Notes under the pieces: generated by a model | What the model was told of the DNA's origin: nothing | What the model saw: the letters and a program-made list of their open reading frames with translations, nothing else | Database searches by the model: none | Assembly: GCF_004010195.1 (NCBI RefSeq) | Contig: NC_057717.1 | Span: 102,516,849 to 102,575,192 of the forward strand | Direction: 5' to 3' | From: Chiloscyllium plagiosum | Taxonomy: Eukaryota | Length of the DNA: 58,344 bases | Shown: positions 6,175 to 58,344 of the stretch, in pieces | Layout: each line of letters starts with the position of its first letter | How positions within the stretch are numbered: the first letter of the stretch is position 1 | Program-made: the position numbers and the translations under genes

Positions 6175-6730
6175 GGTTTGATAATTGGATGTAGGTTTGC
6201 TCGCTGAGCTGAAAGGTTCAGTTTGAGATGTTTCGTTACCTTATTAGGTAACATCTTCAGTGGACCTCAGGCGAAGCAATGCTGAAAATTCCTGCTTTCT
6301 ATTTACATGTTTGGGTTTTTTTGGGTTGGTGATATCATTTCCTGTGGTGATGTTATTTCCTGTGATGAAATAACTTCCTGTTCCTTTTCTCAGGGGATGG
6401 TAGATGGGATCTAACTCGATGTGTTTGTTGATAGAGTTCTGGTTGGAATGCCATGCTTCTAGGAATTCTCGTACGTGTCTCTGTTCGGCTTGTCCTAGGA
6501 TGGATGTATTGTCCCAGTCGAAGTGGCGTCCTTCCTCATCCATATGTGAGGACACTAGTGAGAGAGGGTCATACCTTTTTGTGACTAGTTGGTGTAGATG
6601 TATCCTGGTGGCTAGTTTTCTGCCTGTTTGTCCAATGTAGTGTTTGTTGCAGTCCTTCCAAGCTATTTTGTAAATGACATTGGTTTTGCTCACTGTCTGT
6701 ATAGGGTCTTTCAAGTTCATTAGCTGCTGG
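6175..6730 (-). mobile_element. Penelope-like element, 5'-truncated: GIY-YIG endonuclease plus 3' pseudo-LTR tail
   Basis: QQLMNLKDPIQTVSKTNVIYKIAWKDCNKHYIGQTGRKLATRIHLHQ...HFDWDNTSILGQAEQRHVREFLEAWHS; the upstream part of ORF 6244-6999 runs into unrelated sequence. Confidence 0.9.
6227..6264 (-). ncRNA. Minimal hammerhead ribozyme motif, lineage D (Penelope 3' end)
   Basis: CTGAAGA-t-gttacc-taataa-ggtaac-GAAACATC; stem I decayed. Confidence 0.65.
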
Positions 6731-7828
6731 TTTGATAATTGCACAATCTCATGAAAGCAGAGGGTGAAGTGAAGTGTGAGGCTTACAAGGCAACATGCGG
6801 TCATCAAATTCAACGTGACAGCAGTAAACATCCGATGGCTGAAATAAAGAGAGAGAAGGTACACCAAGAATGATCGGAACATTGGATTTGATGAAGAGGT
6901 GCTGCCACAGAGTCCATAAATTTCTTTAAAAGGGAGTTGGGTTGCTTCATAAAGAAGATTAAAGGATTCAGGGGAGAATGGGATTAAACCAATTGGCACA
7001 GACTGAAAAATATTAGCTTCAACATAATGGCCCAGATGGTCTGTTTCAGTGTTTGAACAGTCTCTGAAGCTACATGCCCATACTTGTTCAAGTTATGAAA
7101 TAGGAAATTGCTGGTTTTCTTTCTTTCAGCACAAGTTACTGTTGAGCCTTTAAAAGCATGCACGGCAGACACGAGAAGGGACTGACTGCGTGTTAATGAT
7201 GCTTCCAGCTCAATCGCAAGTTTCAGCAATCTCACAGCCTCCAGCACAATACTCACACATGCACAGGCAGGGCAAGTGAGTGTCTCATTTCTGCTTCGCA
7301 CACAGCCCAATGAACCAAAATACTCCTCACGGGGACGTTTCTCAATCCCTTTTCCAGGGACTAGGAGCTAGCTCTGCCTGGGTCACACTGACAGCTTCTA
7401 ACGCACGAGACGCTTGAGGTTTATTCGAAGGGCCAAATGATGTGTGGGGAGTCCAAGTCACCGTCTTCTCTGAGCAGGAAGAAACCCCTTCCATCGGGGT
7501 TGTCACATTGGACAAGTCAGTTCAGTTTGCATAAAAAACGTTCCCAAAAAACACCAATCTGACAAAGGCTGGATAATCTTAGTTTGCGACTTTGATGAAA
7601 AGCTATACTAGCCAGGTCATCTGGTACACCTCGTGTGCTTCACGTTGAAATGGTGCTTTGGGTTATTTCATGGCATCCTCAGAGAGCGGTTGGGATTCAG
7701 TAACATTTCGTCTTTAAGGTTACATCCTAGGCAGTCTAACATTCAGTGCCTGAGCCTAGGATTTGTCCTCAAGTCCATGACTTGAGGATGGCACGGCGGC
7801 TCATCCTTAAGCGCTGCTGCCTCATAGC

Positions 7829-7960
7829 GGGAGAAAGTGAGGACTGCAGATGCTGGAGACCAGAGTTGAAAAATGTGGTGCTGGAAAAACACAGCAGGCC
7901 AGGCAGCATCCAAGGAGCAGGAGAGTCGATGTTTCGGGCATAAGCCCTTCTTCAGGAATT
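7829..7960 (-). mobile_element. Short Penelope-tail element with lineage A hammerhead (single arm)
   Basis: Minus strand CTGAAGA-a-gggc-ttat-gccc-GAAACATC followed by the family tail ...ctgcagtcctcactttctcc. Confidence 0.8.
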
Positions 7961-7974
7961 GATCACAGCGTCAG

Positions 7975-8905: not shown

Positions 8906-8952
8906 CAGTGGTTTGGCTACTTAAGTTGACTATGTTCACGCTTACACTAATA

Positions 8953-9113
8953 CAGAGGAACCTTGATTTTCCAGCATTCAATTATCTGAATATCAGATTT
9001 CCCGGCAAGATCACAAGGTCCCAATGCTCGGCTAAAGCATGTTATCCAGCATTCGCTTATCCGGAATTCGATTAACCGAATGAAATACTCCCCGGCCATG
9101 TCCTTCGGAGATT
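8953..9113. mobile_element. TcMar/Tigger-like MITE, one end decayed; inverted copy of 51456-51628
   Basis: ta|cagaggaacctt terminus; internal ttatccggaattcgattaaccgaa; interior is the reverse complement of the 51.5-kb copy. Confidence 0.75.
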
Positions 9114-12520: not shown

Positions 12521-12524
12521 ATGT

Positions 12525-16830: not shown

Positions 16831-17074
16831 TGGTTAAAGCTGCAACAGGTTACTCCAGATGTTGCGATTGGCCTCACTGAACATCTCCTGTAATTCTTCC
16901 ATAATTCTCACCATAGCCCACGTTGTTCAGGTCCCTATAATACGCTGTGCCTTGTGATTGACAAGTACACAACAGAAATGTCAAATAAAACAGAAGGACT
17001 GAAGTTAGAGGGAGACACCGCATTACTGATCGCAAGACGCATTTATAAGATAATCCCTTGGCTTTCACTCCTGT

Positions 17075-17165
17075 TTCCTGAAGAAGGGCTCGTGCCCGAA
17101 ACGTCGATTCTCCTGTTCCCTGGATGCTGCCTGACCTGCTGCGCTTTTCCAGCAACACATTTTCA
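17075..17165 (+). ncRNA. Lineage A short element with intact hammerhead core at 17078-17105
   Basis: CTGAAGA-a-gggc-tcgt-gccc-GAAACGTC; flanking repeat gctttcactc at 17061-17070 and 17166-17175. Confidence 0.7.
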
Positions 17166-21374: not shown

Positions 21375-22690
21375 GTGAGTACTATTCGACTGAGTGTGGC
21401 ATCAAAGAGGCCCAGCTAAACTGGAATCAATGGAAATTGGGGAAAATTCTGCACTGGTTGGAATCATACCTGCCACAAAGGAAAATGGATATGTTTGTTA
21501 GAGGTCAGTCATCTCAGCTCCAGGACAACTCTGCAGAAGTTCATCAGGGTAGTGTCCTCAGATCAACCATCTTCAGCTGCTTCATCAATGATCTTCCCTC
21601 CATCATACGGTCAGATGTGGGGATATTCACTGATGATTGCACAATGCCAATCACCATTTGTGACTCCTCAGATACTGAAGCAGCCCAAGTTCAAATGTAC
21701 TAAAACCTGGACAATATCCATGGTGTGGAGGTGCCAGTGTTGGACTGGGGTGGACAAAGTCAAAAGTCACACATCACAAGGTTAAATTCCAACAGATTTA
21801 TTTAAAATCACAAATTTTCAGAGCACTGCTCCTTTATCACCCTCTCTTGACGAAGGACCAGTGCTCTGAAAGCTTGTGATTTAAAATAAATCTGTTGGGT
21901 TATAAACTGGTGTTGTGTGACTACTGACTTTGGATAATATCCAGGCTTGGGCTGACACGTGGTAAGAAACATTCACATTTTACAAATGCAAGGCAATGAC
22001 CATCTCCAACAAGAGACTATTCAACTCACTGCCCCTTGACATTCAATGGCATTACCATCACTGCATCCACCACTATCCTTGGAGTTCAAGTGATCGGCAA
22101 AACAACTGGATTCACCATATAAACACAGTGGCTGCAAAGGCAGATCAGAGGCGGGGAGTCCTGTGGGGAATAACTCACCTCCTGACCTCCAAAACACCTG
22201 TCCGCCGTCTACAAGGCACAAGTCAGGAGGGTGAGGGAATACTCCCCACTGGCCTGGATGGGTACAGCACCAACAACACTCAAGAAGCTCAACACCATCT
22301 GGGATAAAAGCAGCCCGCTTGATTGGCACCACACCCACAAGCATCCACTCCCTCCACCACCGACGCTCAGTAGCAGCAGTGTGTATCATCTACAAGATGC
22401 ACTGCAGAAAATCACCAAAGATCCTCAGGCTGCACCTTCCAAACACATGATCACTTCCATTTAGAAGGACAAGGGCAGCAGATACATGGGACCACCGCCC
22501 CCTGCAAATTCCCCTCCAAATCACTCACCATCCTGACTTGGAGATATATGGCCATTCCTTCAGTGTCGTTGGGTCAAAATCCTGGAACTTCCTCCCTAGT
22601 TGCACTGTGGCGTTCCCAAACTGCTGCAGCTCAGCACTGCCTTTGCAGGAGCAACTAGGGACAGTTGCCCACCTCCCCAGAATTAGTAAA
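21375..22690 (+). mobile_element. Second LINE family, RT C-terminal half to 3' end (interrupted at 21721-21930)
   Basis: LHWLESYLPQRKM...VHQGSVLRSTIFSCFINDLPSIIRSDVGIFTDDCT (QG and F-x-DD RT motifs). Confidence 0.9.
21721..21930. mobile_element. Lineage C fold-back element with decayed hammerheads and 13-bp TSD
   Basis: Inverted arms (cacacatcacaaggttaaattccaacagatttattt / aaataaatctgttgggttataaactggtgttgtgtg); TSD tgga(c/t)aatatcca at 21708-21720 and 21931-21943. Confidence 0.8.
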
Positions 22691-22946: not shown

Positions 22947-23034
22947 TAAAAATGTGTTGCTGGAAAAGCGCAGCAGGTCAGGCAGCATCAAAGGAACAGG
23001 AGAATCGACGTTTCGGGCATAAGCCCTTCTTCAG
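22947..23034 (-). ncRNA. Lineage A short element with intact hammerhead core (23007-23034) and 12-bp TSD
   Basis: Minus strand CTGAAGA-a-gggc-ttat-gccc-GAAACGTC; TSD gaactcagccct at 22935-22946 and 23035-23046. Confidence 0.75.
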
Positions 23035-24121: not shown

Positions 24122-24260
24122 TTCCTCATTCCTGAAGAAGGGCTAATGCCCGAAACGTCGATTCTCCTGTTCCCTGGATGCTGCCTGACCTGCTGCGCTT
24201 TTCCAGCAACACATTTCCAGCTCTGATCTCCAGCATCTGCAGACCTCATTTTCTCTTCAA
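24122..24260 (+). ncRNA. Lineage A short element with intact hammerhead core (24132-24159) and 11-bp TSD
   Basis: CTGAAGA-a-gggc-taat-gccc-GAAACGTC; TSD agtcatccagt at 24111-24121 and 24261-24271. Confidence 0.75.
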
Positions 24261-24728: not shown

Positions 24729-24936
24729 CCAGGCAGCATCAGGAGGCGGAGAAGTCAACGTTTCGGGTATTAACCCTTCTACAGGATTAGATATGGGGGG
24801 GGTAGGGGGAATCCTAAAAACGAGCTATACCCAAAGTGTTGACTTCTCTACCTCCTGATGCTGCCTGGCTTGCTGTGTTCTTCCAGCCTCCTGTTTCTCT
24901 CCTTTGGATTCCAGTATCTGCAGTTTTCTGTCTCTG
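24729..24936. mobile_element. Lineage E fold-back element with perfect 17-bp TSD
   Basis: TSD actgaggtcaatatttg at 24712-24728 and 24937-24953; minus strand CTGTAGA-a-gggt-taat-accc-GAAACGTT-gac; inverted arms. Confidence 0.85.
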
Positions 24937-26484: not shown

Positions 26485-27450
26485 CTACATCATGTTGAGG
26501 TTGTACAGGACATTGGTAAGGCCACTGTGTACAGTTCTGGTCACCCTGCTAGAGGAAAGATAGTATTAAACTGGAGAGGAATCAGAAAAGATTTACCAGG
26601 ATGGAATGGGAGGTTTGAGCTATAAAGGAGAAGTTGGATAGGCTGGGATGTTCTTCACTGAAGGGTAGAAGGTTGAGGAGTGATCATAAAGAGGTTTATA
26701 AAATCATGAGGGGTATAGATAAGATGAATAGCGTAAGTATTTTCCTTAAGGGGCAGGAGTTCAAAACTAGAGGGCATAGGTTTAAGTTGAGAGGAGAAAG
26801 ATTTAAAAGGGACTTGAGGCAACTTTTACACCCAGAGGGTGGTTTGTGCGTGGAATGAACTGCCAGAGGAAGTGGTAGATGTGGGTTACAGTTACAGCAT
26901 TTAAAGCAGTTACAGCATCAGGCCTCAATCCTGATGAAGGCCTTTTGCCCAAAACGTCGATTTTCCTGCTCCCTGGACGCTGCCTGATCTCCAGCACCTG
27001 CAGTACCCACTTCTGCCTACCACATCTAAATCACATTTGGACAGGTACATGGACAGGAAAGGTTTAGAGAGATGTGGGCCAAGCACAGGGAAATGGGATG
27101 AGTTTAGTTTGGGAAATCTGATCGGTGTGGAGGAGTTGAACTGAAGGGTCAGCATCAGGCCTCAATCCTGATGAAGGCTTTTGCCCAAAACGTCGATTTT
27201 CCTGCTCCCTGGACGCTGCCTGACCTGCCGTGCTTTTCCAGCACCACTCTAATCTTGACTCTGATCTCCAGCATCTGCAGTCCTCACTTCTGCCTACCAT
27301 ATCTAAAAGACATTTGGACAGGTACATGGACAGGAAAGGTTAGAGGGATGTGGGCCAAGCACAGGGAAATGGGATGAGTTTAGTTTGGGAAATCTGATCG
27401 GTGTGGAGGAGTTGAACTGAAGGGTGTTTCGATGTACCACGATTTGCGAC
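26485..27450 (+). mobile_element. CR1 3' fragment with an inserted lineage A element; the insertion plus CR1 tail is tandemly duplicated (26913-27149 / 27150-27425)
   Basis: EVYKIMRGIDKM...TRGHRFKLRGERFKRDLR; two copies of aatcCTGATGA...AAAACGTCgatt 237 nt apart. Confidence 0.85.
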
Positions 27451-30245: not shown

Positions 30246-31264
30246 TATCCTAAAGATGCCAGTCCCCCCTCCTATTCACTATGACATTACATTCTCTGAT
30301 CTACAGTTGTCCCCTGTCTCTGTCAGTGACCCAGTACATCAAAGCCCTCTGAGGAAGGGTCTCCGGACCCAAAGCATTAACTCTGATTTCTCGTCACAGA
30401 TGCTGCCAGACCTGCTGAGCTTTTCCAGCACCTTCTGTTTTTCTAGCCCTTACACAGACTTAAGTTATCTGCTAGCTCTGGGTCTTTGTGGATTTCTCCC
30501 TGACCCCTTTGGTGAACATCACCACCAGCATACCCCCAGCCCCGATCACTCCAAGAATGGACCACGGCCTACCCCATAGACTGATGTCTCGATAGCCCCC
30601 CAGTGGTCCTACCTGTAATCCCCACCTGACCAGGGCTGATACACCTCTCTGATCAGACCCAGTACTGATTGTGGGCAACCCCCTGGTCTGCGATAGGTCA
30701 CGTGCCTTGACAGACTGGAGCAGGACCCCCCTGACTGACTATAGTTCCCTCCCTTCACCCCACTAAGGACTGCTCCCCTTTGATGTTTACACATGGCTGT
30801 GTGTTTGAAGTATGTGTAGTGTATTTGCTGTGTAATGTGCCAGCATGTACTGTGGCTCTGACAGTGCCCTACAGAGACATGTCCATCCCTTATAGGGTGG
30901 TTTATAGCGTGACTAACTGTTTGGTTCTCTACACTGTCTCCAGCTCCCTCTGAACTGAAAAGCAGTGTTGGCCATTAAGGCCGGCACTGGGCACAATAAA
31001 GACCCTGTGAGTTCAGGAAGCAAAGAGACCGCCCTCGGGATTGGCAGCTGGTACATCAGTGCTGAAGTCCGGAAGCATGCACTACAGCAACACCGTGGAG
31101 CAGATGGAGTATGTCAGGCTCCAAGTGCTCACTAGGTGAGCGAGTGCTCACAAAATGAGCTGAGAGCCATAAGGGGCATCCTGTGTCGAGTGTCCCTGAG
31201 GACAGAGTGACCTGGCAGAGACCTGGCAGTGAAGATGGCGCTGCGCTTCGAAGAAGGTTTTGTG

Positions 31265-31775
31265 TGGAAGACCGTCAGAAAGCTGCCTGTGTGGAGTTTG
31301 CAAGCTCTCCCTCTGTCTGCATGGGCTTCCTCGAGACGCTCTGGTTTCCAAAGGTGTGCGGGTGGATTAGCCGTGCTAAATTGCCCCGTAGTGTCTGAGG
31401 ATATGCAAACAAGGTGGGTTAGCTATAGGAAATGCAGGGTTACAGGGATAGGTAGTCAAAAAGTGTGGCGCTGGAAAAGCACAGCCGGTCAGGCAGCATC
31501 CAAGGAACAGGAGAATCGACATTTAGAGCATAAGCTCTTCATCCTGATGTAGGCCTTGTGCTCAAAATGTTGACTCTCCTGCTCCTTGGATGCTGCCTGA
31601 CTGGCTGTGCTTTTCCAGCGCCACACGTTTTGACTCTGATCTTCAGCATCTGCAGTCCTCACTTTCTCCTACAGGGATAAGTAGGGATCTGGTTTGGGCA
31701 CTCTTTGGAGGGTCAGTGCAGACTTGATGGGCTGAATGGCCTCTTCCTGCACTGGAAGGATCCTACAATTCTAAA
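31265..31775 (+). mobile_element. HE1-like SINE containing a lineage A fold-back element (31456-31669)
   Basis: V-core; TSD tacagggata(g/a)gtag at 31441-31455 and 31670-31684. Confidence 0.85.
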
Positions 31776-31820: not shown

Positions 31821-31989
31821 TCAGGGACAAAAAAATCTGCAGATGCTGGAATCCAAGGAGGCTGGAAGAGCACAGGAAACCAGGCAGCATCAGGAGGTGG
31901 AGACGGCAACATTTCAGGTCCTGAAGAAGGGTCAGACCCAACACGTTGACTTCTCCACCTCTTAATGCTGCCTGGCTTGCTGTGTTCTT
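31821..31989. mobile_element. Lineage E fold-back element with TSD
   Basis: TSD ccatggtgagg at 31810-31820 and 31990-32000; gtc-CTGAAGA-a-gggtcagaccc-AACACGTT-gac at 31918-31950. Confidence 0.8.
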
Positions 31990-32539
31990 CCATGGTGAGG
32001 CCAGGAGCATAACGCAGTGCCAATGCCTACCTGTGGGGGAGGAAGGTTGGAGGGAGATGGTGCCCTTGGAGTAGTCAATGGATGTTGCAGTGATGCAGCA
32101 GTTGGATGATGAGCTGACAGTCATTGAGATGCAATCACCAGGTACCCCATTCTGACTTGTGTCAGGGGTTCGTGCCACTTCATCCCTCAGTGGCCAGTTG
32201 GACAACTGGGAGGTGAGCTGGGGTTTGCATGAGATGCAAACATGTGCAAACGAGATTCTGAGCTCACACCGAGGGGGAAATCCAGGGTGGTGTTTCCCAT
32301 TCCTATCATATTTTCCCACCTTCCTTACCAGTTCCCATACCACACCAGCCAGGAGGAAGTTCTGCCCATGATCACTCCCCTCGTCAGCTCCATCCTGAGG
32401 GATGTGCCCCAGATTTGTCAGAATAAAGCACTCAACTGGTGCAAATCATGTGGGTCCTCCATTCCTGAGTGAAGTATCTTCCTGAGATACTACATGTTAT
32501 GTTACATCAAAGAGGTTAACAGAATCATTGAATTTATCC

Positions 32540-32860: not shown

Positions 32861-33127
32861 CCTACACAGAATAACAGCACGTCTGATAATCTATTGAGGG
32901 CTGAGGCTGGATGAGTCACAAAACCAAGGACACAGAGGCTGAGTCAGATTAATGTGCCATCTTTTTGATGATGGACTGGAGCTGGCAGGGGGTTCCAGTC
33001 AAAGCTTGCTGTGAAAAAGTGGGTCACCCTTAACCGATTACCCAGTCAACCCAGGAAATGTCCGACTTGCTGGATTATTCCGGACATCTCCATGGGCACC
33101 GTGACACTCATTAAAAGCTGCATTGTC

Positions 33128-33221
33128 TTCCTGAAGAAGGGCTCATGCCCGAAACATCGATTCTCCTGCTCCTTGGATGCTGCCTGACCTGCTGCGCTTT
33201 TCCAGCAACACATTTTCAGCT
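33128..33221 (+). mobile_element. Lineage A single arm
   Basis: CTGAAGA-a-gggc-tcat-gccc-GAAACATC at 33131-33158. Confidence 0.75.
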
Positions 33222-33794
33222 CGTTTCTGCCCGACTGTCAGTCAACAATATCGTCTGCGAACAGAAGCGCAAGGAAAGACTCTGGTGTTCCTGTCATATC
33301 TTATCCCATCCTTTGCCAACATCTTAGGGTTGCGTGGTGGGGTCCGGTGGGAAATGTCACAGGAATTTCACTCACACAGCAAGACCCCACACAAAGCGAG
33401 GTGCGATGGGAAACTCTGCAAACTCGCCATGAGCTACTTATCGTTCACTGGAGGATGTCAAGGTGGTCTCATTGCAATCTCACTCACTGCACCCCCTCAT
33501 TATTTCCGATGGACTGTCCGATGTAATCTGCTGCTGGCCCGGGACTTTAAATCTATTGAGCCAGAGGGGGAGGGACAGAGTGTGATCTCTGCAGCTGGGT
33601 GCTCAGAGAAATTATCACCACCAGGGTGGTCTTTTACAATGAGGGTTAATGTTTTGGGTCCAGCGTCCCTTCCTCAGAGCAGGCCTGGACCTGAAACGTT
33701 ACCTCTGATTTCTCTACACAGATGCTGCCAGACCTGCTGAGCTTTTCCAGCACCTTCTGTTTTTGTTTCGGATTTGCAGCATCTGTTTGTAAAT

Positions 33795-34360
33795 TTCCTC
33801 CCCGGGGCTGGTGGGTTTGTACTCAGTCGTTTCGTCACCAGGCTAGGTAACATCATCAGTGAGCCTCCGGTGAAGCGCTGCTGCTGCGTCCCACTTGCTA
33901 TTTGTCTGCCTCGGTTTGTTGGGGTGGGTGATATCATTTCCTGTTCTGTTTCTGGGAGGTTGGTAAATGGGGTCAAGATCGATGTGTTTGTTGATGAAAT
34001 TCCGGTTTGAATGCCAGGCCTTTAGGAATTCCCCTGCATGTCTTTGTTTAGCCTGTCCCAAGATGGGTGTATTGTCCCAGTCGAACTGGTGTCCTTCGTC
34101 TGTGTGTGTGGATACCATTGATAGCTGGTCACATCTTTTGGTGGCTAGTTGATGCTCATATAAGCTGGTGGCTAGTTTCCTGCCAGTTTGTCCAATGTAA
34201 TGTTGCAGTCCTTGCAGGGCATTTTGTACATGATGTTCGTTTTGCTGATTGTTGGTACAGGGTCCTTTAAATTCATCAAGAGCTGTTTGAGGGTGGTGGT
34301 AGGTTTGTGGGCTACCATGATGCCGAGGGGCTGGATCTACAGTTCTTTCAACTTGTGCAA
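33795..34360 (-). mobile_element. Penelope-like element GIY-YIG fragment plus 3' tail
   Basis: HYIGQTGRKLATSLYEHQLATKRCDQLS...QFDWDNTPILGQAKQRHAGEFLKAWHSNRNFINKHIDLDPIY. Confidence 0.9.
33822..33863 (-). ncRNA. Lineage D hammerhead motif with full stem I
   Basis: ctca-CTGATGA-t-gttacc-tagcct-ggtgac-GAAACGAC-tgag; stem I ctca/tgag; cleavage triplet mutated (GAC). Confidence 0.7.
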
Positions 34361-34517
34361 CGAGTGCTGTGTTTCGACACGGGGGGATGTGGAGAAAGTG
34401 CTTCCGGTAGTGAAGAGGACTGAAATGAGGACTCATAATCTACTCTCCCTTCAACTGCCCCTGTTGCTTTGTGGGCATCCAAGAATCGTGTGCAGCAGTA
34501 CCTTCCAGAACTGGTCA

Positions 34518-34730
34518 TGATGTGGAGGAGCCAGTGTTGGACTGGGGTGGACAAAGTTAAAACCCACACAATGCCAGGTTATAGTCCAACAGGTTTATTT
34601 GGAAGCACTAGCTTTCGGAGCACTGCTCCTTCATCAGCACCACAACCACCTGATGAAAGAGCAGTGCTCTGAAAGCTTGTGCTTCCAAAGAAACATGTTG
34701 GACTATGACCTGGTGTTGTGTGATTTTTAA
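34518..34730. mobile_element. Lineage C fold-back element with hammerhead cores on both arms (- 34609-34637; + 34650-34678)
   Basis: CTGATGA-a-ggagc-agt-gctcc-GAAAGCTA (-) and cac-CTGATGA-a-agagc-agt-gctct-GAAAGCTT-gtg (+). Confidence 0.85.
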
Positions 34731-35289
34731 CTTCTGGAAGTGGGAATGCTTTGAAGGGGGTGCTGCTCCCAGTAATTACTAATAAATCCAGGGAAGAAAT
34801 GTTTTTACTCAGAGAGAAGTTAAAAAGCAGAACTCACTGCTGAAGGAAATGATTGAGGTGATTTGGGGCAGAGACTGGAGAGAAAAGGAGATAGGAAGAT
34901 ATTCCCAGATAGATAAAATGCGGGAAGATCTTTGTGAAATATGCATGACCGCATCTGAATGGCATATTTGCACCCTCCATATTCCACATAGAGTCATAGA
35001 GTTGTACAGCATGGGAAAAATCTCCTTTGGGGTTAAAGAGAAAGGCAAAGAGAGACCTCAGTGCTATATCCCAATGCCATCTTTGGGATTGGGAGAGGAC
35101 ATTCATTTCCAATTTGTCCACTCCCTGTGGATTCTAGCCCTCGGTTTTGCCTCATGACCCACTCAGGAACTGAGAAGCAGTGAAGTGGGGAACTACAGGG
35201 GCAATCCTCAAGTACTCTGTGAGGGTTGTGGCTCACTGGATGACATGTATGCTTACAGAAGGATACGTGTAGACTTTGCACTGCAGTCC

Positions 35290-38545: not shown

Positions 38546-38548
<3 letters not shown>

Positions 38549-41109: not shown

Positions 41110-42255
41110 CATTGGCAAGTTATGTTGTAGCTTTGTAGAACTTTGGTTAGGCTGCATTTGGAATTTTGCTTACATTCTTCATAGAATCTTTTACAGTGTG
41201 GAAACAGGCCCTTCGGCCCAACAAGTCCACACTGGCCCTCCAAACAGTAACCCACCCAGACCCATTCCCCTACGTTTGATCCTTGACTATTGCACACATC
41301 CCTGAACACTACAGGCAATTTAGCATGGTCAATTCGCCTAACATTTCGCCTAACATCTTTGGACTCTGGGAGGAAACCATAGCACCCAGAAGAAGCCCCC
41401 ACAAACACAGGGAAAATGTGCAAACTCCACACAGACAGTTGCCTGAGGCTGGAATCGAACCTTGGTCCTTGGCGCTGTGAGGCAGCAGTGCTAACCACTG
41501 AGCCACCGTGCCACCTGCGTCAGCACACTACCAGAAGGATGTTGAAGCTTTGGAGAAGATACAGAAAACATTTACTGGGATGTTGTCTGGTTTGAAAGGT
41601 GTTAGCTATAAAGAGAGATTGGAAAAACTCAGCTTGTTTTCATTTGATTGTCAGAGGCTGAGGGGCAACCTGATAGAAGTTTACAAAGTTTGAGAGGCGT
41701 GGATAGGATGGATAGTCAGGGTCTCTTTCCCAGGGTAGAAATGTCGATTATTAGGGGACGTAGGTTTAAGATGAAGGAGAGTTAGTTGAAAGGAGATGTG
41801 AGAGGCAAATCTTTCACACAGAGGATGGAATGCAATGCCAGAGCAGGTGAGAGATGGAGACACAATGGCAACATTTAAGAAGCATCTTCACAGACACATG
41901 ATTGAGCAGGGTAAAGAGGGATGCTGCGTGGAGGCAAAGGTTTTTAATTGAGAAAGGTGTTGCATGTCAGTACAATCTTGGATGGTGCTAGAAAAGCACA
42001 GCAGGTCAGGCAGCATCCGAGGAGCAGGAAGATCGACGTTTTGGGCAAAAGCCCATCATCAAGAATGATGATGAAGGGCTTTTGCCCGAAACGTCGATTT
42101 TCCTGCTCCTCGGATGCTGCCTGACCTGCTGTGCTTTTTCAGCGCCACTCTAATCTAGACTCTGATCTCCATCATCTGCAGTCCTCACTTTCTCTTACAG
42201 TCTTGGATTGGCCGGAGGGCCTGTTCCTCTGCCGTACTGTTCCTTGTTCTTTGAA
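41110..42255 (+). mobile_element. CR1 3' fragment with nested HE1 SINE (-, 41180-41512) and lineage A fold-back (41984-42195)
   Basis: HYQKDVEALEKIQKTFTGMLSGL; TSD taca(a/g)tcttggat at 41971-41983 and 42196-42208. Confidence 0.85.
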
Positions 42256-44029
42256 CTGAGCGCCCAGTGCCCACAGTGTAGTATTGTTTTCTCATTGTAA
42301 AGCATGTGGGAGATGGATGAAGAAAATCAGGATTCAAAGATTCTCTTTCCTCCCGTTTGGTGAGGGAAGATGAGATGGACGTGTCAGGTGACCAATGGCT
42401 GGAGGCCATGTGATTCAATATGTCCAATCACAGTTGGCAACCCCAGTCACTGTTTATAAAGCAAGCTTGCTTTTGGCTGTGATACATCATCCATCTTTAA
42501 CTGAATGCCCTCATTTATCTAATCAAAAGCATTTTAAGGATCTCAATGCTCCATTATTTGCCCATCACTAGTAGTCCCATTGAAAAATATCATCTTTACT
42601 GCAACCTGATGCTGAATATTCACTGGAGTACAAGATAATTACGGATAAGCAGATTATCAGACTCTTTCCAAGACCCTTATCCCAAAGTAGCATTTATTAA
42701 ACAGTTCCAGAATTCTTGTCTGCTTTATTTCAGGTGATGGGACATAGGCAACTCTGGAGTTGTACACCAGAGTCATAAGTAACCAAGAACCAGCAGAGGG
42801 AGAGCCAACCACATTGCTGCGGGTCTGGAGTCTCATGAAGCCCAGACCAGGTAAGGATGGCAGTTTCCTTCCCTCAAGTAGGAATTAGTGAATCAGATGG
42901 GTTTTTCCCAACAATTAATGCTGGCTTCAAGGTGACCATCACTGCTCTGTATTCCAGAACGTATTTTTGATGAATTGGGTTCCAATTATGACAATTTCCG
43001 AGGTGAAATTTGAATCCATGCCCTTAGAGCACTTGCTTGGAGCCTCTGCATTATTAGGTCTAATGACATTAGCAGAATCCCCTTGGATTCTTTATTTGAG
43101 GATAAGTCCAGATCATAGAATCATAGAATCCCTACAGTGTGGAAACAGGCCCAACAGGTCCACACCAACCCTCTGAAGAGTAACCCACCCAGCCCTACTG
43201 TGCTTTTTACAGCACCATACTCTATCTCCTTGACCCTCCAACATCTGCAGTCCTTACTATCTCCTAGCCACTAACAGTCCCATTGGTAGCTATTCTCCCT
43301 CCTAGTCAGATCGTTCACCAATCCTTTGTCTGTCCAACTGCTCTTCTCTCTCTTTGGGCTCTATCCCTACTTATCGTTTACTCCTTACCCCGCCCCACCC
43401 TATTATCTGCATAAACAAACATCTTTTCCCTCGCTACCATCTCTTCTGAGGAAGGGTCACTGGACCCGGAATGTTAACTCTGCTTTCTCTCTCCACAGAT
43501 GCTGCCAGATCTGCTGAGTTTTTCCACCGATTTCTGTTTTTGCTACGTCTGTGAACTCTGTGATGAACACGTCCTCTCCTGTAGAAGTGGGTAGTGACTG
43601 GCAGCACATTGGCAGATGTACCGATAAAGGTACACCTCATGTGTTTGTGATTCGAGCGCGGTGACACTATGAAAGAAGTTAAACATGAGGGAAGGAAGTG
43701 CAGTTTGATGCTTTGAGATTTCCAGGACTTAACTTGAATCAGGAGGGACAGCGGCTAGGTGTTCAGGATAAGATGGAATCTGCTGTGTTTGTTAAAACAC
43801 AACCAAGAGTAACCGTTGGGAGATGCATGAGTGGACAATTTGTCCATGGCTAACACAGTTCAATTGATTCCATTCTGCCCCTCTATCTTGCCCCCTCCGC
43901 CCCCCCCCGGGGAATGGATTCAATGCTGAACACTGGCCAATTGTGCTGGTTCAGGTTTTATTGAAAGCCTATTGCGAGAAACAGATGCAGAATTAAATAT
44001 CGGTGTTCATTTCTGCAGTGCCACTGAAA

Positions 44030-47068: not shown

Positions 47069-49309
47069 CTCCCACTCCCCCCACCCCCCATTCTTTTTAA
47101 ACTCCGTTGAGTATCAATCCAGAGTCCACAAACATTCCTCATATGTTAAGTTTTTCATTCCTGGGATCATTCTCGTGAACCTCCTCTGAATACACTCCAG
47201 GGCCAGTGCATCCTTCCTGAGATATGGGGCCCAAAACTGTGCATGATACTCCAAATGTGGTCTGACCAGAGCCGAATAGAGGCCTCAGAAGTACATCCCT
47301 GCTTATATATTCTCGTCTTGTCAAAATGAATGCCAATATTGGGTTTACCTTCCTAACTATTGACTCAGCATGTCAGTTTACCTTAAGAGAATCCCAGACT
47401 AGGCCTGCCAAATCCCTTTGCATATCAGATTTCTGAATTTTCTCCCCATTTAGAAAAGAGTCCATGTCTCTATTCTTCCTATAAGATGCATGACCTCACA
47501 CCTTCCCAGATTGTACTCCATCTGACACTTCTCTGCCCACTCTCCTAACCTGTCCAAATCCTTCTGCAGCCTCCCTGCTTCCTCAATGCCAACTGTCCTT
47601 CTACCTATCTTTGTATCATCTGCAAACTTAGTCAGAATGCCCTCAGTTCCTTCATCTAGATCATCAATGTATGAAGTGAAAAGTTGTGGTCCCAACACTG
47701 AGCCTTACAGAACACCACTTGTCACCGGCTGCCATCCTGAGAAGGACCCTTTTATCCCCACTCTCTGCTTACTGCCAGACAGCCAAGCTTCTATCCAGGC
47801 TAGCACCTTGCCTCTAACACCATGGGCCCTTATCTTACTCAGTAACCTCCTGTGCGGCACTGTGTCAAAGTCCTTCTTGAAGTCCAGGTAGATTACATCC
47901 ATTGGCTCTCCTTGGTCTAACCTGCTCATTACTTCCTCAAAGAATTCTAGCAGATTTGTCAGGCATGACCTCCCCTTAATGAAACCATGTGGATCTGCTC
48001 TATTTTACCATATACTTCCAAGTCTTCAGAAATTGCATCCTTCGCAATGGGGTCCAAAATCATACCAACGACTCAGGTCAGGATAATTGGCTTGTCATTT
48101 CCCGACTTCTGCCCCTTCTTAAACGGGGGGGGGTGAGGGAGGGTTACCTTAGCAATTTTCCAGTCCTCTGGGACCCTCCCTGACTCCAGTGAATCCTGAA
48201 GGATCACCACTAACAACTCCACTATCTCTTCATATCTACCTTTGGGGTATATCTACCTTCAGGCCATTCAGTTATTCTAGCACCTTCTCCTTGGTAATGG
48301 TCACCATACTCATGTCATTTCCCCCCCCCCCCCGCCACTGATTCTCTTGAATTTTTGGGATATTAATCTTTCTTCCACTGTGAAGACTGACACAAAATAA
48401 TTATTCACTTTCTCCGCCATTCCTTTGTTCTCCACTACTATCTCTCCAGCATCATTTTCCAGCAGCCCAATGTCCTCTTTTATCTCTCTTTTACCCTTTA
48501 TATATCTAAAGAAACTCTTATGTCACTGGCGAGGTTACCCTCATATTTAATGTTCTCCCTTCTTATTTCTCTTTGTTGTTGTGCTCTGTTGGCGTTTGGA
48601 GCTGGAAAAGCACAGTAGGCCAGGCAGCATCCGAGGGGCAGGAGAATTGACAGTTCGAACATGAGCCCTTCACAGGAATCTTCATTCCTGATGTAGTGCT
48701 TATGTTCAAAAAGTTGATTCTCCTGCTCCTCAGATGCTGCCTGACTGGCTGTGCTTTTCCAGCAACACGCTCTCGACTCTGAGCTTTAGCATCTGCAGTC
48801 CCTTTATAAGCTTCCCAATCCTCTGGTTTCCCACTGCCTTTTGCCACATTACATGCCTTCTCTTTTGCTTTTATGCTATCCCTGCCTTCCCTAGGCAGCC
48901 ACGGTTGCTTCATCCTCCCTGCACCATGCTTTTTTTTCTTCGGGATGAATCTCTGCCGTGTCTCCTGAATTATTCCCAGAAACTCCTGCCATTGCTGTTC
49001 CTGCTGGGCTCCTCTCCCAGTCAATTTTACCCAGTTCCTCCCTCATGCTTCTGTAGTTGCCTTTATTCAACTGTAATTCTGTTAGCGAGTTTTGAGAAGA
49101 TTTGTAGCTCAGGTTGAGGTTCTGGATGTAGGTTTGCTCGCCGAGCTGGAAAGGTTCTGGATGTAGGTTTGCTCGCCGAGCTGGAAGGTTCGTTTTCAGA
49201 TGTTTCATCACCATACTAAGTAACTGCTGTTCCTGCTGGGCTCCTCTCCCAGTCAATTTTACCCAGTTCCTCCCTCATGCTTCTGTAGTTGCCTTTATTC
49301 AACTGTAAT

Positions 49310-50383
49310 TCTGTTAGCAAGTTTTGAGAAGATTTGTAGCTCAGGTTGAGGTTCTGGATGTAGGTTTGCTCGCCGAGCTGGAAATTTCGTTTTCAGATGT
49401 TTCATCACCATACTAAGTAACGTCATCAGTGAGCCTCTGGTGAAGCACTGGTATATGGCCCGCTTTATATTTATGTATTTAGGTTTCCTTGGGTAGGTGA
49501 TGTTATTTCCTGTGTTGGTGATGCCATTTCCTGTGTTGGTGAGGTTATTTCCTGTTCTTTTTCTAAGTGGGTGGTAAATGAGGTCCAAGTCAATGTGTTT
49601 CTTGGTAGAGTTCCGGTTGGAATGCTATGCTTCTAAGAATTTTCGTGCATGTCTCTGTTTGGCTTATCCTGGATGGATGTGTTATTCCAGTCAAAGTGGA
49701 TTCCTTCCTCATCTGCATGTAAGGATACTAGTGAAAGTGGGTCATGTCTTTTTGTGGCTAGTTGGTGTTCATGTATCCTGGTGGCTAGTTTTCTGCCTGT
49801 TTGTCCAGTGTAGTGTTTGTTACAGTTCTTGCACAGTATTTTGTAAATGACGTTCGTTTAGCTTGTTTCTCTGTGTAGAGTCTTTCAAGTTCATTAGCTG
49901 CTATTTTAGTGTGTTGGTGGGTTTGTGAGCTACCATGATGCTAAGAGGTGTGAGTAGGTCTGAGTCATTTCCAAGATGCCTTTGATTTGGGGAGAGTGGC
50001 TAGAATTTCTGGACACATTTTGTCTGCTTGTTTAGGTTTGTTGCTGAGAAATCGGTGTTCATTGGAGAATCCGTTCTTTTTGAATATGCTGTATAGGTGT
50101 TTCTCTCTTCTCTGCATAGTTCCTCTGTGCTGCAGTGTGTGGTGGCTCATTGAAATAATCTTCTAATGCACCTTTGTTTGTGGAGGTTGGGGTGATAGTT
50201 TCTGTCGTTCAGTATTTAGGCCGTATGTGTTGTTTTCCTGTAGATGCTGGATTGAAGTTCCTCATTGGCTGTTCACTCTACTGTGACATCTAGAAATGGC
50301 AGTTTGTTGTTGTTTTCCTCCTCTTCAGTGAATTTTATGCCTGTAAGGATATTGTTGATGGTCTTGAAGGTTTCATCTAATTT
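49310..50383 (-). mobile_element. Penelope-like element (RT C-terminus, linker, GIY-YIG, hammerhead tail) with 17-bp TSD
   Basis: IKFTEEEENNNKLPFLDV, KHLYSIFKKNG, NVIYKI.CKNCNKHYTGQTGRKLATRIHEHQ; hammerhead ctca-CTGATGA-c-gttact-tagtat-ggtgat-GAAACATC-tgaa; TSD ctttattc(aa/ct)ctgtaat at 49293-49309 and 50384-50400. Confidence 0.9.
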
Positions 50384-51455
50384 CTTTATTCCTCTGTAAT
50401 AATTTTACCTCTGATTCCACCTTCTCCCTCTCACATTGCTGAGTAAATTCAATTATATTATGATCACTGCTTCCTAACGATTCCTTCACCTTAAGCTCCC
50501 TTATCAAGTCTGCCTGATCCCACCCAAACACACCTCCTTCCACCCCACCCAAACCACCCCACCTTGATCCATCTTCTAGGCCTGCCCCATAGCAGGCTGA
50601 AATGGGGTAAGGTTAGGGCTATGTCAGGGTAACTTAGAGTTGTCACATCTCACACCTGAAGGGTAGCCGGGCAGGCGGGCGAGAAACTCGAGAGTGGGTA
50701 GTTCACTTGGAAATGTGCCCATTCACTGAGGAGGGGCAAGGAGAGAAAGGGAAAAGTGAGAGTTGAGAAGAAAAAAGCTTGAAATGAATCACACAGCAAT
50801 TGAAAGGTGCTGTGTTTCACGAGCAGTTTGGAAACAAAACAGAGTGAGAAATTAGTGCGACTGGAACATCGGCCGATAAAGTTACTGCCCTCAGTTCCAT
50901 TCATCCAGGGGTAAGAATCACAAGCCCGTGTGAGTAGATTGATTTACAAGCTGGGGATTTTACCTGATGGATGTACGAGAAACACTCAGCACCACAATTC
51001 TCCAAGCAGCTTCTTAGCTTATAGTTTTGAGGATTAGCAGCAACAATGTGAGACAAACTCCACGAGAGAGATAGAGACGCGAAACCAGATGGGCTGTCTC
51101 TCCATGACATTTCTTCCCAATAAGTGCTGTCATCGTTGATGAGGCGCAGACGGATTTCTGGACTGAAATTGTTGAGATGCTTTTCTTTCAGAAACTGTAC
51201 GTTGACTGACAGACCTTGGTTGTGACTAATACCAGGCGGCTGTTTAATGTACAACTGCACCATTGCTGGGAAGGTAATGCTTTATCTAAAGCAAACACGG
51301 TGTGGGGTTTGTAACTCCAGTGCAGGCAAGCAAGGAAGATAAATGGCTCCCTCAACAGTCCTTGAATCTTTTAGTCTGTGTTACTGTGGCTGTACTGATA
51401 GCCTTTGTTTAGGACATGACTGGGCAGCAAGAGAATGATGGAAAAGAAAAGATCA

Positions 51456-54072: not shown

Positions 54073-54126
54073 TAATCCTATTGAAACACACAAATACCTG
54101 TGCTGGCTTGACAAGGTAGACTTTGA

Positions 54127-54279
54127 TTCTGGAATAGACTGGTGCTGGAATCCTGATGAAGGGCTTTTGCCGGAAACGTCGATTTTCCTGCTCCTCGGAT
54201 GCTGCCTGAACTGCTGTGCTTTTCCAGCACCACTCTAATCCAGACTCTGGTTTCCAGCATCTGCAGTCATTGTTTTTAT
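54127..54279 (+). mobile_element. Lineage A element with perfect 15-bp TSD
   Basis: TSD caaggtagactttga at 54112-54126 and 54280-54294; aatc-CTGATGA-a-gggc-tttt-gccg-GAAACGTC-gatt at 54149-54184. Confidence 0.85.
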
Positions 54280-54930
54280 CAAGGTAGACTTTGAGAAGAT
54301 ATTCCCAAAACCCTTCCCTCATTCAGGTCTCTGTATTGCAGGGGTCACCATCCTCTATTGTGGCTACACTGAGCTCTCCCCATTTGTCCTCAGTCCCATT
54401 CTTCAAGGTCTGGAGGGGGTTTCTGTTAGTTCATGATACACCATTGGAAGTAAGGAAGCTGAGAATACCAGTGATGTTCGAGGTAAAATGCGTTAAGAGG
54501 TATCTGGATACCTTCCGAAACTGGTTTATGTTCATAATAAGGCCAGGCTCATCCACAGACATTTTGTCACACTGTTCTTTCTTTGGACGAGACCGGTGGA
54601 CGAACTCCTTGGACTCCCAACAGCTTTTGACCAAGCGTTTGGGTCAATGAGCAGATAGCTAGGCATTCACGCAAGGTGAAGCCAGACGCTCAAGGTGGAG
54701 CGACTAAGAGAGAGAGAGAAAGCGAAGCATTGATGAGTGCAAGACTGGTGGGTCGGACCTACCCATTACAAAGGTATTCCTCCAAAATCATAATAACGGG
54801 GGTGGGAACATGATATAGATTGGGGTGGACCCTGAACCCGACAGAGTCATGAGGCAGCTGATCTTAGACAACAGTTCACAGAGAGGGGGAGTTGTTTGAG
54901 GTCAGGTATTTGGTGGACGATGGGAACAGC
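54280..54930 (+). pseudogene. Highly decayed Gypsy-like LTR retrotransposon integrase C-terminal region
   Basis: Across frames: DFEKIF; YLPKLVYVHN; SST...FFGR; PVDELLG; KVFLQNH..GGNMI...DPEP.RV, in Gypsy integrase order. Confidence 0.45.
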
Positions 54931-55382: not shown

Positions 55383-56409
55383 AGAATGCTGCCATTAATG
55401 TAGACTAGCCTTCGTGGTACAACTGAATCTCCTAATCGCGCAACTGCTGAGCATGCGGTCACTGTATCGCTGTTGGTGTGGCACATTTGAAGCAAGGGCT
55501 GATGGGAAGGCAGGGCCAATGTTCAAAGGAATTCCTCAGCCCAGTGCAAACCACAAGCTCCTCCTGTGTGCGCATTGTAAGCAGTTCCTTGTTTATCTAA
55601 AATTTCTCCTCCCGATTGTAATAATGCCCGCGGAGGAATAATGCCTGCATCCTGATCTTTGCGTCATTCATATGTTCAAATCCCGTGTTGCAGAGAGTAC
55701 TCATGGGAGACCTCTTCACACTTCACGGGCAAGAACTGGGATCAATCACACAGCTCACACGTAAATCTCTGAGAAGGAGAAGGAATCCCTCCACACTTGG
55801 TGATTGTTCAGGAATTGATGAAAACGTCACTTTGCTGTGGGCTTTAAGATCTTTCAAACTTAATCCTCAGATGGGGGTATGAACTGTTCACCTTTACACT
55901 GAGTTCGCTGCTTTATTTTCTCTCTCTGGGATGGATGCTTAATAGAAAATCTCTGTGAATATTCATTTCTGAGCTTTCACAGCACTTAGTTCACACTTAC
56001 TCCTTGAACTGTACATTTCGGGATGGATAATCCAAAAAAACTGCCCGTGTCTGACTTTCCATTCATCTGTAACCCAGTGTACTGGGTGTGGCAGAAGCTG
56101 TCAGATTAATGCCTCATTAAGCACTTGAATTTATTTTTAGATGGATCGCTTGATTAGTTTTATTGTCTCGTCCTCCTTTTAACTAATAAACATCTGTTCC
56201 ACTGTTGAACACAATCTGCCTTCTCACGTTACCATGTTTCAGTGAGTGACTGTGGCATTGACTAAAATTAAACTAAAACAATGATCTACTAGGGATCTGG
56301 ATTGTCCTGTGGTGCCATCAGCTGTGAGTATTACACCAGCAAGCGGCTAAGTTTCAATAACTGGTCACAGGAGCAGAAGTGAGTCATTCAGCCTCTTGTA
56401 CCATCCTGT

Positions 56410-56740
56410 AATCACAGAATCCTCACAGTGCGGAAGCAGGCCATTCGGCCCTTTGAGAACACACTGACCCTCTGACATCCCACTCAAAGACTCACCCCAT
56501 CCCTGTAACCTCGTATTTCCCATGGCTAAGCCACACATTCGCCCCATCCCTGTAACCTCGTATTTCCCATGGCTAACCCACACACTCACCCCATCCCTGT
56601 AACCTCGTATTTCCCATGGCTAATACACACACTATGGGCAATTTAGCATGACCAATCCAGCTAACCTGCACAGGAGGAAACAAGAGCACTTGGAGGAAGC
56701 CCATACAGACCCCAGGAAAACATGCAATCTCCACACAAAA
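56410..56740 (-). mobile_element. HE1-like SINE with three 47-bp internal tandem units (56491-56625)
   Basis: ctcaccccatccctgtaacctcgtatttcccatggctaa starting at 56491, 56538 and 56585. Confidence 0.85.
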
Positions 56741-56742
56741 GT

Positions 56743-58344
56743 GTAACTACTCCTGTTGCTGCCTGTAGCTACTCCTGTTGCTGTCTGTAGCTATTCCTGT
56801 CGCTGTCTGTAGCTAGGAGAAAGTGAGGACTGCAGATGCTGGGGATCAGAGCTTAAAAATGTGTTGCTGGAAAAGCGCAGCAGGTCAGGCAGCATCAAAA
56901 AGAAGGAGAAGGAGAACCGACGTTTCAGGCATAAGCCCTTTATTCCTGAAGAAGGGCTTATGCCCGAAACGTCGATTCTCCTTCTCCTTTGATGCTGCCT
57001 GACCTGCTGCGCTTTTCCAGCAACACATTTTTAAGCGCTGTCTGTAGCTACTCCTGTTGCTGCCTGTAGCTACTCTTGTCGCTGCCTGTAGCTACAGACA
57101 GCAACAGGAGTAGGTACAGACAGCAACAGGAGTAGTTACAGACAGCAACAGGAGTAGCTACAGACAGGAACAGGAATAGCTACAGACGGGAACAGGAATA
57201 GCTACAGACAACAACAGGAGTATTCAAAAACAGCAACAGGAGTAGTTACAGACAGAAACAGGGGTAGTTCAGACAGCAACAGGAGTATTCAAAAACAGCA
57301 ACAGGAATAGCTACTGACAACAACAGGAGTAGTTACAGACAGCAACAGGAGTGACTACAGACAGCAACAGGAGTAGATACAAACATCTGTAGGAGTCTTT
57401 ACAGACAGCAACAAGAGTAAATGCAGACAGCAACAGGAGGAGTTACCGACAGCAACAGGAGTAGATACAGACAGCAACAGGAGTAGCTACAGAGAGCAAC
57501 AGGAGTAGCTACAGACAGCAACAGGAATAGTCACAAACAACACCAGGAGTATTTACAGACAGGAACAAGAGTAGATACAGACCGCAACAGGAGGAGTTGC
57601 AGACAGCAACAGGAGTAGCTACAGACAGTTACAGGAGTAGGTGCAGACAGCAACAGGAGTAGATAGAGACAGCAACAGGAGTATGTGCAGACAGCAACAG
57701 GAGTGGCTACAGACAGCAACAGGAGTAGTTACAGACAGCAACAGGAATAGCTACAGACAGCAAGAGGAGTGTTACAGACAGAAACAGGAGTAGCTACAGA
57801 CAGCAACAGGAGTAGTTACAGACAGCGACAGGAGTAGCTACAGAGAGCAACAGGAATAGCTACCGACAGCAATGGGTGTAGATACAGACAGGGACAGGAG
57901 TAGTTACAGACAGCAACAGGAATAGCTACAGACTGCAACAGGAGTAGCTACAGACAGCAACAGGAGTAGCTATAGAGAGCAACAGGAATAGCTACAGAGA
58001 GCAACAGGAATAGCTACAGAGAGCAACAGGAATAGCTACAGACAGCAACAGGAGTAGCTACAGACAGCAACAGGAGTAGCTACAGACAGCAACAGGAATA
58101 ATTACAGACAGCAACAGGAGTAGATACAGAGAGCAACAGGAATAGCTACAGACAGCAACAGGAATAGCTACAGATAGCAACAGGAGTAGATAGAGTCATT
58201 TACAGGAGTAGCTACAGACAGTTACAGGAGTAGTTACATACAGCGACAGGAGTAGATACAGACAGCAACGGGAGTAGATAGAGTCATTTACAGGAGTAGC
58301 TACAGACAGTTACAGGAGTAGTTACACACAGCGACAGGAGTAGG
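56743..58344. repeat. 22-bp minisatellite/satellite (gctacagacagcaacaggagta)n, inverted before 57091, running off the window end
   Basis: About 57 forward units from 57091; reverse-complement units at 56743-56815 and 57036-57091. Confidence 0.95.
56816..57035. mobile_element. Young lineage A fold-back element with intact hammerhead core (+, 56946-56973) inserted in the satellite
   Basis: Near-perfect inverted arms; CTGAAGA-a-gggc-ttat-gccc-GAAACGTC; cgctgtctgtagcta on both sides (56801-56815, 57036-57050). Confidence 0.9.

Follow-up and report, generated by a model that had tools for sequence, protein, structure and literature searches.

Hammerhead-like motifs and Penelope-type insertion signatures in short repeats of a 58-kb window of the Chiloscyllium plagiosum genome

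The stretch of 58,344 nt studied here (the window) originates from the shark Chiloscyllium plagiosum (RefSeq assembly GCF_004010195.1, contig NC_057717.1, positions 102,516,849 to 102,575,192, forward strand) and is scattered with short repeats that share the layout of a hammerhead ribozyme. This raises the question of what carries these motifs and whether they still represent ribozymes. We conclude with high confidence that they are minimal hammerhead ribozyme (min-HHR) motifs, which lack helix III, and that their carriers in this shark genome are Penelope-like retroelements (PLEs). The conclusion rests on three direct observations: the match of the sequence architecture to published min-HHRs, the position of one family (D) next to remnants of PLE open reading frames (ORFs), and PLE insertion signatures in the two other families (A/B/E and C). 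The motifs are not a new ribozyme class, but new shark members of a published one. A previous sequence-only reading of the window had described the architecture correctly, but had missed the PLE origin.

Occurrence, architecture and families of the motif

The loose pattern CTGANGA-N6-30-GAAAC matched 10 times in the window, compared to 1.18 matches expected from shuffles. As all 10 matches are located inside repeat copies, this count mostly reflects repetition, and a stricter descriptor was applied, comprising box 1 (CUGANGA), one unpaired base, a stem II of at least four pairs, GAAA, a Watson-Crick pair 15.2-16.2, U16.1 and a base other than G at position 17. Six intact motifs were found with this descriptor, compared to a mean of 0.005 in 200 shuffled windows. 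Four belong to lineage A (17078, 23034 on the minus strand, 24132 and 56946) and two to lineage C (34637 on the minus strand and 34650). The hammerhead-like motif in the window is real and occurs far beyond chance.

Min-HHRs were defined as type-I hammerhead cores without helix III that are expected to act as dimers (Cervera and de la Peña 2014, PMC4209133). According to the same study, they have an extra base separating positions 9 and 10.1, pair G10.1 with C11.1, are palindromic at 15.2-16.2 and possess a short helix I; they form many consensus families per genome with frequent opposite-strand pairs, and are extremely abundant in metazoan genomes (about 4,000 in the coelacanth and about 9,000 in Xenopus). 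Min-HHRs of PLEs were also treated by Lünse, Weinberg and Breaker in 2017, as cited in PMC6765202. The motifs of the window have the same type-I core, a helix III that is absent or reduced to a palindrome and would need a dimer, an unpaired base between A9 and 10.1 and mostly G10.1-C11.1, in agreement with the earlier description of the architecture. Further features in common are the presence of several families in one genome with compensatory changes in stem II, and the arrangement as dispersed single motifs or close opposite-strand pairs.

For a position-wise comparison, 29 full-length motifs were parsed in register by a script, as lineages C and D could not be aligned in this way with MAFFT. 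A base between A9 and 10.1 is found in every one of the 29 under the parsing layout, which presupposes it; this base is A in lineages A/B/E and C, and either T or C in D, with the exception of two T variants. G10.1-C11.1 is present in most copies, with exceptions including 34650 (A-T) and 54153 (G-G).

Lineages A, B and E belong to a single repeat superfamily, aligned by a 19-nt box that lies downstream of the motif and is found 30 times in the window; about 60 nt after the motif and its cut site are common to all three (local alignment z 12-14). Outside the motif, neither C nor D is related to A/B/E, nor are they related to one another (z ~0), with the exception of a weak signal between A and D (z 3-4). 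Judged from these alignments, the independent families number three (A/B/E, C and D), and the proposal of at least five distinct, otherwise different lineages could not be upheld. Stem II does differ by family and stay complementary, as had been stated; its sequences here are GGGC/GCCC, GAGC/GCTC, GGGTC/GACCC, GGGT/ACCC, GGAGC/GCTCC and GTTACC/GGTAAC. Since no sequence outside the motif is common to the three families, the core is what they share, and the argument for past ribozyme selection rests on it being the sole sequence common to three unrelated families.

The window contains 31 copies of A/B/E and five of C (36 in total), plus three of D. The suggested density of one motif per 2-3 kb is thereby exceeded by the element copies (about one per 1.5 kb), but not reached by the six fully intact motifs (about one per 10 kb). 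Elements of A/B/E and C make up roughly 7% of the bases of the window, estimated as 36 copies of about 120 nt. The following motifs and their elements are referred to in the text; a target-site duplication (TSD) is given where one was found.

17078..17105, plus strand: A motif, intact (CTGAAGA-A-GGGC/tcgt/GCCC-GAAA-CGT-C), helix I with 2 contiguous pairs
17071-17165, plus strand: A element around the 17078 motif, with the 10-nt TSD GCTTTCACTC on both flanks
23007..23034, minus strand: A motif, intact, loop ttat; short-form element 22947-23034 with the 12-nt TSD AGGGCTGAGTTC
24132..24159, plus strand: A motif, intact, loop taat; long-form (tail-bearing) element 24122-24260 with a 10-nt leader and the 11-nt TSD AGTCATCCAGT
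56946..56973, plus strand: A motif, intact, loop ttat; right, short arm of the head-to-head pair 56847-57040
7928..7955, minus strand: A motif, both core boxes present, helix III palindrome lost (CAT); long form
33131..33158, plus strand: A motif, helix III palindrome lost (CAT)
54153..54180, plus strand: A2 motif, 10.1-11.1 mismatch (GGGC/GCCG), 6 helix I pairs
30349..30378, plus strand: B motif, 5-bp stem II present, GAAA lost (AAAG)
43446..43475, plus strand: B motif, 5-bp stem II present, GAAA lost (GGAA)
24757..24784, minus strand: E motif, box 1 broken (CTGTAGA); short arm of a pair with 24857 (plus strand), the pair having a 17-nt TSD
31921..31947, plus strand: E motif, GAAA broken (AACA); short arm of the pair 31863-31992, TSD CCATGGTGAGG
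34609..34637, minus strand: C motif, intact (GGAGC/agt/GCTCC, helix III GCT, A17), 0 helix I pairs; long arm of the pair 34554-34733
34650..34678, plus strand: C motif, intact, 3 helix I pairs from a 12-nt leader; short arm of the pair 34554-34733
6227..6260, minus strand: D motif, 6-bp stem II GTTACC/GGTAAC, both boxes present, helix III palindrome lost
33826..33859, minus strand: D motif, 5 helix I pairs, helix III palindrome lost
49396..49429, minus strand: D motif, stem II held by G-U pairs, helix III palindrome lost

The four intact A cores and their loops (tcgt, ttat, taat and ttat in the order listed) confirm the earlier assignment, and the cut predicted after 56973 would fall at the correct position of the parsed motif. 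The stem I given for lineage A (aatc/gatt) is found in the A2 copies 54153 and 26931 only; the four intact A copies carry ttc before the core and form 2 contiguous pairs. The helix I pairs of 54153 derive from a 26-nt inverted stub; its element spans 54127-54280 and has a 14-nt TSD. In 26931-27400, two A2 copies, the first with an internal deletion, lie in direct orientation 237 nt apart and have 18 nt of upstream and about 45 nt of downstream flank in common. By their sequence, these copies (26931 and 27168), the sole direct neighbours, look like a local duplication or composite repeat rather than a retrozyme-type tandem array.

Penelope-like context and insertion signatures

Canonical Penelope-like elements encode a reverse transcriptase (RT) with a GIY-YIG endonuclease at its C-terminus. 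GIY-YIG endonuclease-like sequence is encoded by the stop-to-stop ORFs that lie immediately before two of the D motifs. One of them (6376..6711) shows 65% identity over 107 residues (E 1e-46) to the C-terminus of P0004, a protein of 705 aa with RVT_1 and a sub-cutoff GIY-YIG match. Based on tblastn, all three D motifs follow RT/GIY-YIG ORF remnants at a distance of 86-121 nt, namely 116 nt (6260), 86 nt (33859) and 121 nt (49429) past the GIY-YIG homology. The remnants are:

6376..6711, minus strand: PLE ORF remnant, 5'-truncated, with GIY-YIG C-terminus (65% identity to P0004 residues 596-702)
33858..34394, minus strand: PLE ORF remnant, linker and GIY-YIG (tblastn)
49538..50398, minus strand: PLE ORF remnant, C-terminal RT through GIY-YIG (P0004 residues 419-702), broken by frame changes

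The GIY-YIG match in the window's own ORF has an E value of 0.15, and the GIY-YIG link came through homologues only; at E <= 0.01, Pfam found no transposon domain in the nine longest ORFs of the window. Lineage D represents the min-HHR motif in its ordinary place, about 100 nt past the RT/GIY-YIG ORF of 5'-truncated autonomous PLE copies. The terminal repeats of canonical PLEs are reported always to carry hammerhead motifs (PMC6765202, PMC4209133).

A B-type copy on the plus strand and a D-type PLE 3' end on the minus strand abut tail to tail at 33700-33870, which suggests nested or adjacent PLE-type insertions. At 47450-48004 on the minus strand, two adjacent ORFs encode an RT of the type of long interspersed nuclear elements (LINEs; FADDTK, identified by eye), with only weak similarity (27% identity, E 3e-7) to PLE RT. 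This is the remnant of a non-PLE retrotransposon with a CR1/L2-like LINE RT. An A-type pair (48601-48763) is located just upstream of it.

The elements of A/B/E and C are modules of 90-150 nt. Exact direct repeats of 10-14 nt border four single A copies; the 5' ends of these elements lie 0, 7, 10 or 26 nt ahead of C3 and their 3' ends about 88 or about 129 nt past it. In addition, the window contains nine head-to-head pairs. In all nine, a tail of about 40 nt is present on one arm only and the other arm is short; false matches of the tail pattern at +7 in the B copies 30399 and 33721 were left out of the counts. In the pair 56847-57040, the left arm lacks box 1 and bears the tail. Three pairs lie between the two copies of one direct repeat of 10-17 nt, a length that is reached by 0 to 6 of 200 shuffles. 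Pairs not included in the list above are:

31454..31635, no strand assigned: A-type head-to-head pair with 90-nt arms (89% complementary, 2 nt apart), one long and one short; TSD TACAGGGATA at 31441-31450 and 31670-31679
21755..21932, no strand assigned: C-type head-to-head pair, both cores decayed, one long and one short arm
41983..42147, no strand assigned: A2-type head-to-head pair with 79-nt arms, 92% complementary

A local array of direct and inverted units of about 22 nt (of the CTGTAGCTAC...CAACAGGAG type) follows immediately to the right of the A pair 56847-57040, at 57037-57255, with similar sequence to the left. The TSD of this pair (56878/56991) is ambiguous, because the flank is this repeat array.

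PLE insertions are described by Craig et al. (PMC8557442) as strongly 5'-truncated, with a likewise 5'-truncated inverted copy next to them and a tail of 30-40 bp that is often found at one end only; the same authors report this pattern as absent from LINE-type insertion. The PLE protein of Anolis cuts and extends both DNA strands, and its RT starts internally at two tail-bracketing sites downstream of the hammerhead (Frangieh et al., PMC11167929). Judged by their sequence, the A/B/E and C elements carry these published PLE insertion signatures.

Sequencing reads were used to examine the 5' boundary. In a DNA run with the same species label, contigs diverge at two points, namely 33128, located 3 nt ahead of C3, and a position some 10 nt past 34637; these divergence points support a defined 5' end just before the motif. 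At position 33156, most of the reads that stem from other genomic copies have G, with the palindrome kept.

From these features the following course of events may be proposed. Elements of A/B/E and C consist of a leader of 0-12 nt and the min-HHR, followed by the conserved downstream box and by a 3' end in one of two positions about 40 nt apart, the part between them being the PLE 'tail'. They were most likely inserted by target-primed reverse transcription, in many cases starting from both cut ends of the DNA simultaneously, and such two-end insertion would yield head-to-head pairs with a single TSD. Reverse transcription from the internal site nearest the RNA 5' end, running off that end, would in our view produce the fixed 5' boundary and the two 3' ends. 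Based on the literature, two motifs in the source transcripts would pair via the ACGU or AGCU palindrome and thereby build helix III; by analogy to other PLEs, cleavage after H17 would be weak and probably aided by the protein of the element. The role of the hammerhead in the PLE cycle would be dispensable for insertion in vitro, as in published systems.

Reads of a poly(A) single-cell RNA run (X18) covered the repeats on both strands, and neither their starts nor their ends piled up, although this library type cannot show ribozyme ends. In the same run, 710 and 431 reads, from many genomic copies, join poly-T at 34579 and 34582. These joins indicate that minus-sense C-type RNAs are polyadenylated 12-15 nt past AATAAA (34599-34594), about 27-30 nt past the hammerhead cut site, and C elements may serve as poly(A) sites.

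If transcribed, head-to-head pairs would give long double-stranded RNA. The pairs at 34597-34690, 21801-21886 and 42032-42100 obtain Rfam microRNA-hairpin scores of 38-51 bits at cutoffs of 81-93 and are not family members. MicroRNA precursors were rejected as an explanation, as any long hairpin yields sub-threshold Rfam matches of the kind seen on the inverted pairs (e.g. mir-9457, 51.5 bits at a cutoff of 90).

Decay of the copies and alternative explanations

Among the 29 parsed motifs, box 1 is present in 18, GAAA in 19 and both in 12, and every lineage has at least one copy with each core box. All stem II pairs are present in 22 motifs and the helix III palindrome in 16, whose losses occurred mostly at CpG sites. 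All features together are found in 6/29. Many of the losses are CpG transitions (CCCG to CCCA, i.e. G12 to A, and ACGT to ACAT or ATGT). A helix I of at least 4 contiguous pairs is formed by four motifs (D_33859, A2_54153, A2_26931 and E_31921); many insertions start 0-10 nt before C3, so that the 5' strand of helix I is missing. The genomic copies are not under selection and are mostly CpG-decayed relics.

Several cores that the sequence-only reading had listed differ from its description. Both B copies have lost GAAA (AAAG at 30349, GGAA at 43446), and the E copies have CTGTAGA for CTGANGA (24784, minus strand) and AACA for GAAA (31921). The two C cores are intact as claimed, but the stem I attributed to them is not, with 0 and 3 helix I pairs. 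For D, both boxes and the 6-bp stem II were recovered, and the palindrome of helix III was not (CAT, CGA and CAT after A15.1 at 6260, 33859 and 49429).

A number of results weigh against min-HHRs carried by PLEs. No PLE ORF adjoins any A/B/E or C copy in the window, and the PLE origin of these families therefore rests on the insertion signatures; for the remaining six of the nine pairs, no convincing TSD was found. The Rfam hammerhead models gave no match at the gathering score nor at E <= 10, neither for 33000-34800 nor for the whole window. This null result is expected for a min-HHR variant, since the models include helix III, and it excludes membership in the canonical type-I group. Helix I comprises 2 contiguous pairs in the four intact A copies and 0-3 pairs in the intact C copies, compared to published lengths of 4-5 bp. 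Conservation was determined for 26 of 30 A/B/E copies, with four that lack the motif or are misaligned left out. The majority-base match of the core (0.78-0.84) is no better than that of the downstream part and repeat average (0.77), and the conservation of the core above the rest of the repeat, which the sequence-only reading had made a criterion for its claim, was thus not seen in A/B/E. The best conserved part is the box at +45 to +75, in which 29/31 positions match in at least 20 of the 26 copies, most in at least 23, with the core below it. When an A copy was cofolded with ViennaRNA, intermolecular pairing covered GAAA, which is not the active fold. In favour of the min-HHR reading, the minimum-free-energy fold of D_33859 is the hammerhead secondary structure with helix I, open core and stem II.

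These conservation values and the short helix I of all six intact copies also speak for the possibility, which we consider the less likely one, that the A/B/E and C motif is a non-catalytic, hitch-hiking vestige even in the source copies, and that the downstream box is the functional part, as a module for RT binding or initiation. It would be in line with the finding that PLE insertion in vitro proceeds without the hammerhead (PMC11167929), and with the good proliferation of PLE clades without hammerheads (PMC8557442). However, three otherwise unrelated families have in common both boxes, the extra base, a stem II that differs but stays paired, and a palindrome at helix III, which is hard to explain without selection on source elements, and the youngest A copies keep every core position. 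That the genome holds a very large population of working hammerheads, at about one per 2-3 kb, as the sequence-only reading had proposed, is very improbable. The 39 motif-bearing element copies in 58 kb appear to fit such a population, as do the repeat bins of the DNA run, with a summed word depth of about 1e5 to 5e6 compared to about 10-30 in unique bins, a measure that is not copy number. Yet none of the 6/29 motifs with all features has a helix I of at least 4 bp, the predominance of CpG transitions is what neutral decay predicts, many insertions lack the 5' strand of helix I from the outset, and the head-to-head pairs, if transcribed, are predicted to form hairpins (-124 and -160 kcal/mol) in which the core is buried.

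An origin of A/B/E and C unrelated to PLEs was considered as well, in which LINE-mobilised short interspersed nuclear elements or miniature inverted-repeat DNA transposons would bear a hammerhead-like head by chance. The CR1/L2-like LINE RT of the window could be cited in its favour, as could the resemblance of the pairs to terminal inverted repeats. We regard this origin as hardly credible, because the motif exceeds chance by far and the elements carry neither poly(A) nor a microsatellite at the 3' end. TSD lengths that vary from 10 to 17 nt, single copies with TSDs of their own, two alternative 3' ends and a tail confined to one arm in 9/9 pairs do not fit inverted-repeat DNA transposons, and for LINE-type insertion such a pattern is reported as absent (PMC8557442).

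Relation to known hammerhead elements and implications

Like PLE min-HHRs, lineage D adjoins a PLE RT/GIY-YIG ORF. The window differs from the published cases in its host, a shark, and in a stem II of 4-6 bp compared to 7-8 bp in the Schistosoma min-HHR. Helix I in the youngest A copies has 2 pairs instead of the 4-5 bp of PLE min-HHRs, and two of the three shark families are found only as 90-150-nt modules starting 0-12 nt before C3. Neither the text of PMC4209133 nor two of its supplement files lists a cartilaginous fish, while a further file may contain more species, and the literature searched yielded no relevant report of a hammerhead ribozyme in a shark or other cartilaginous fish. A preprint of 2026 notes non-LTR (long terminal repeat) retrozymes in one chondrichthyan (bioRxiv 10.64898/2026.07.22.740005), and Penelope is named among the repeats in the whale-shark genome paper. 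A metagenome scan with the lineage A motif yielded 0 matches.

The Poseidon PLE of Anolis carolinensis (PMC11167929) is similar in that its hammerhead lies just upstream of a module with two internal RT starts 30-40 nt apart, which define the tail. Likenesses would also include the cutting and extension of both strands, a protein-assisted ribozyme that is dispensable for insertion, and the lack of RNA-seq reads ending at the cut site. In A, the 3' ends lie about 61 and about 101 nt away from the cut site, compared to about 85-92 and 125 nt in Anolis. The module of Poseidon coincides with the start of its ORF, whereas the shark A element has no long ORF; by eye, a stop follows after 26 codons from the ATG in loop II.

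With canonical type-I hammerheads and non-LTR retrozymes (RF00163; bioRxiv 10.64898/2026.07.22.740005) the shark repeats have the hammerhead core and the link to PLE-derived non-autonomous repeats in common. They differ from canonical type-I hammerheads by the absence of a helix III hairpin, of loop-loop tertiary contacts and of any Rfam match at E <= 10. Unlike non-LTR retrozymes, the shark copies are dispersed or head-to-head and not arranged as head-to-tail tandem arrays, although no dedicated search for tandem repeats was made. Sm-alpha and Sj-alpha of schistosomes, as described in PMC6765202 and PMC6155905, are likewise short, very abundant, non-coding hammerhead retroposons, but have a full canonical, active hammerhead and promoter-bearing, SINE-like (short interspersed nuclear element-like) units that are often in tandem.

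Taken together, the assignment to PLE min-HHRs brings a highly abundant group of shark repeats into the Penelope-like class and, by the literature searched, extends the host range of PLE min-HHRs to cartilaginous fish. The window provides clean natural examples of PLE insertion, with inverted pairs, a one-arm tail and variable TSDs, which are useful for repeat annotation, and its copies would permit testing which of the two, hammerhead or downstream box, is under selection. We tentatively suggest, as one possibility with the odds against it, that A/B/E and C form a distinct and possibly dominant class among the repeats of this genome, being ultra-short 'junction-only' PLE products or PLE parasites whose RNA would start 0-12 nt before the hammerhead and would be copied from the first internal RT start back to the 5' end. 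If true, these repeats would be natural, genome-scale evidence for the internal-initiation, two-strand mechanism that has so far been observed only in vitro for the Anolis PLE, and might explain a sizeable share of the repeats listed as unclassified in shark genomes.

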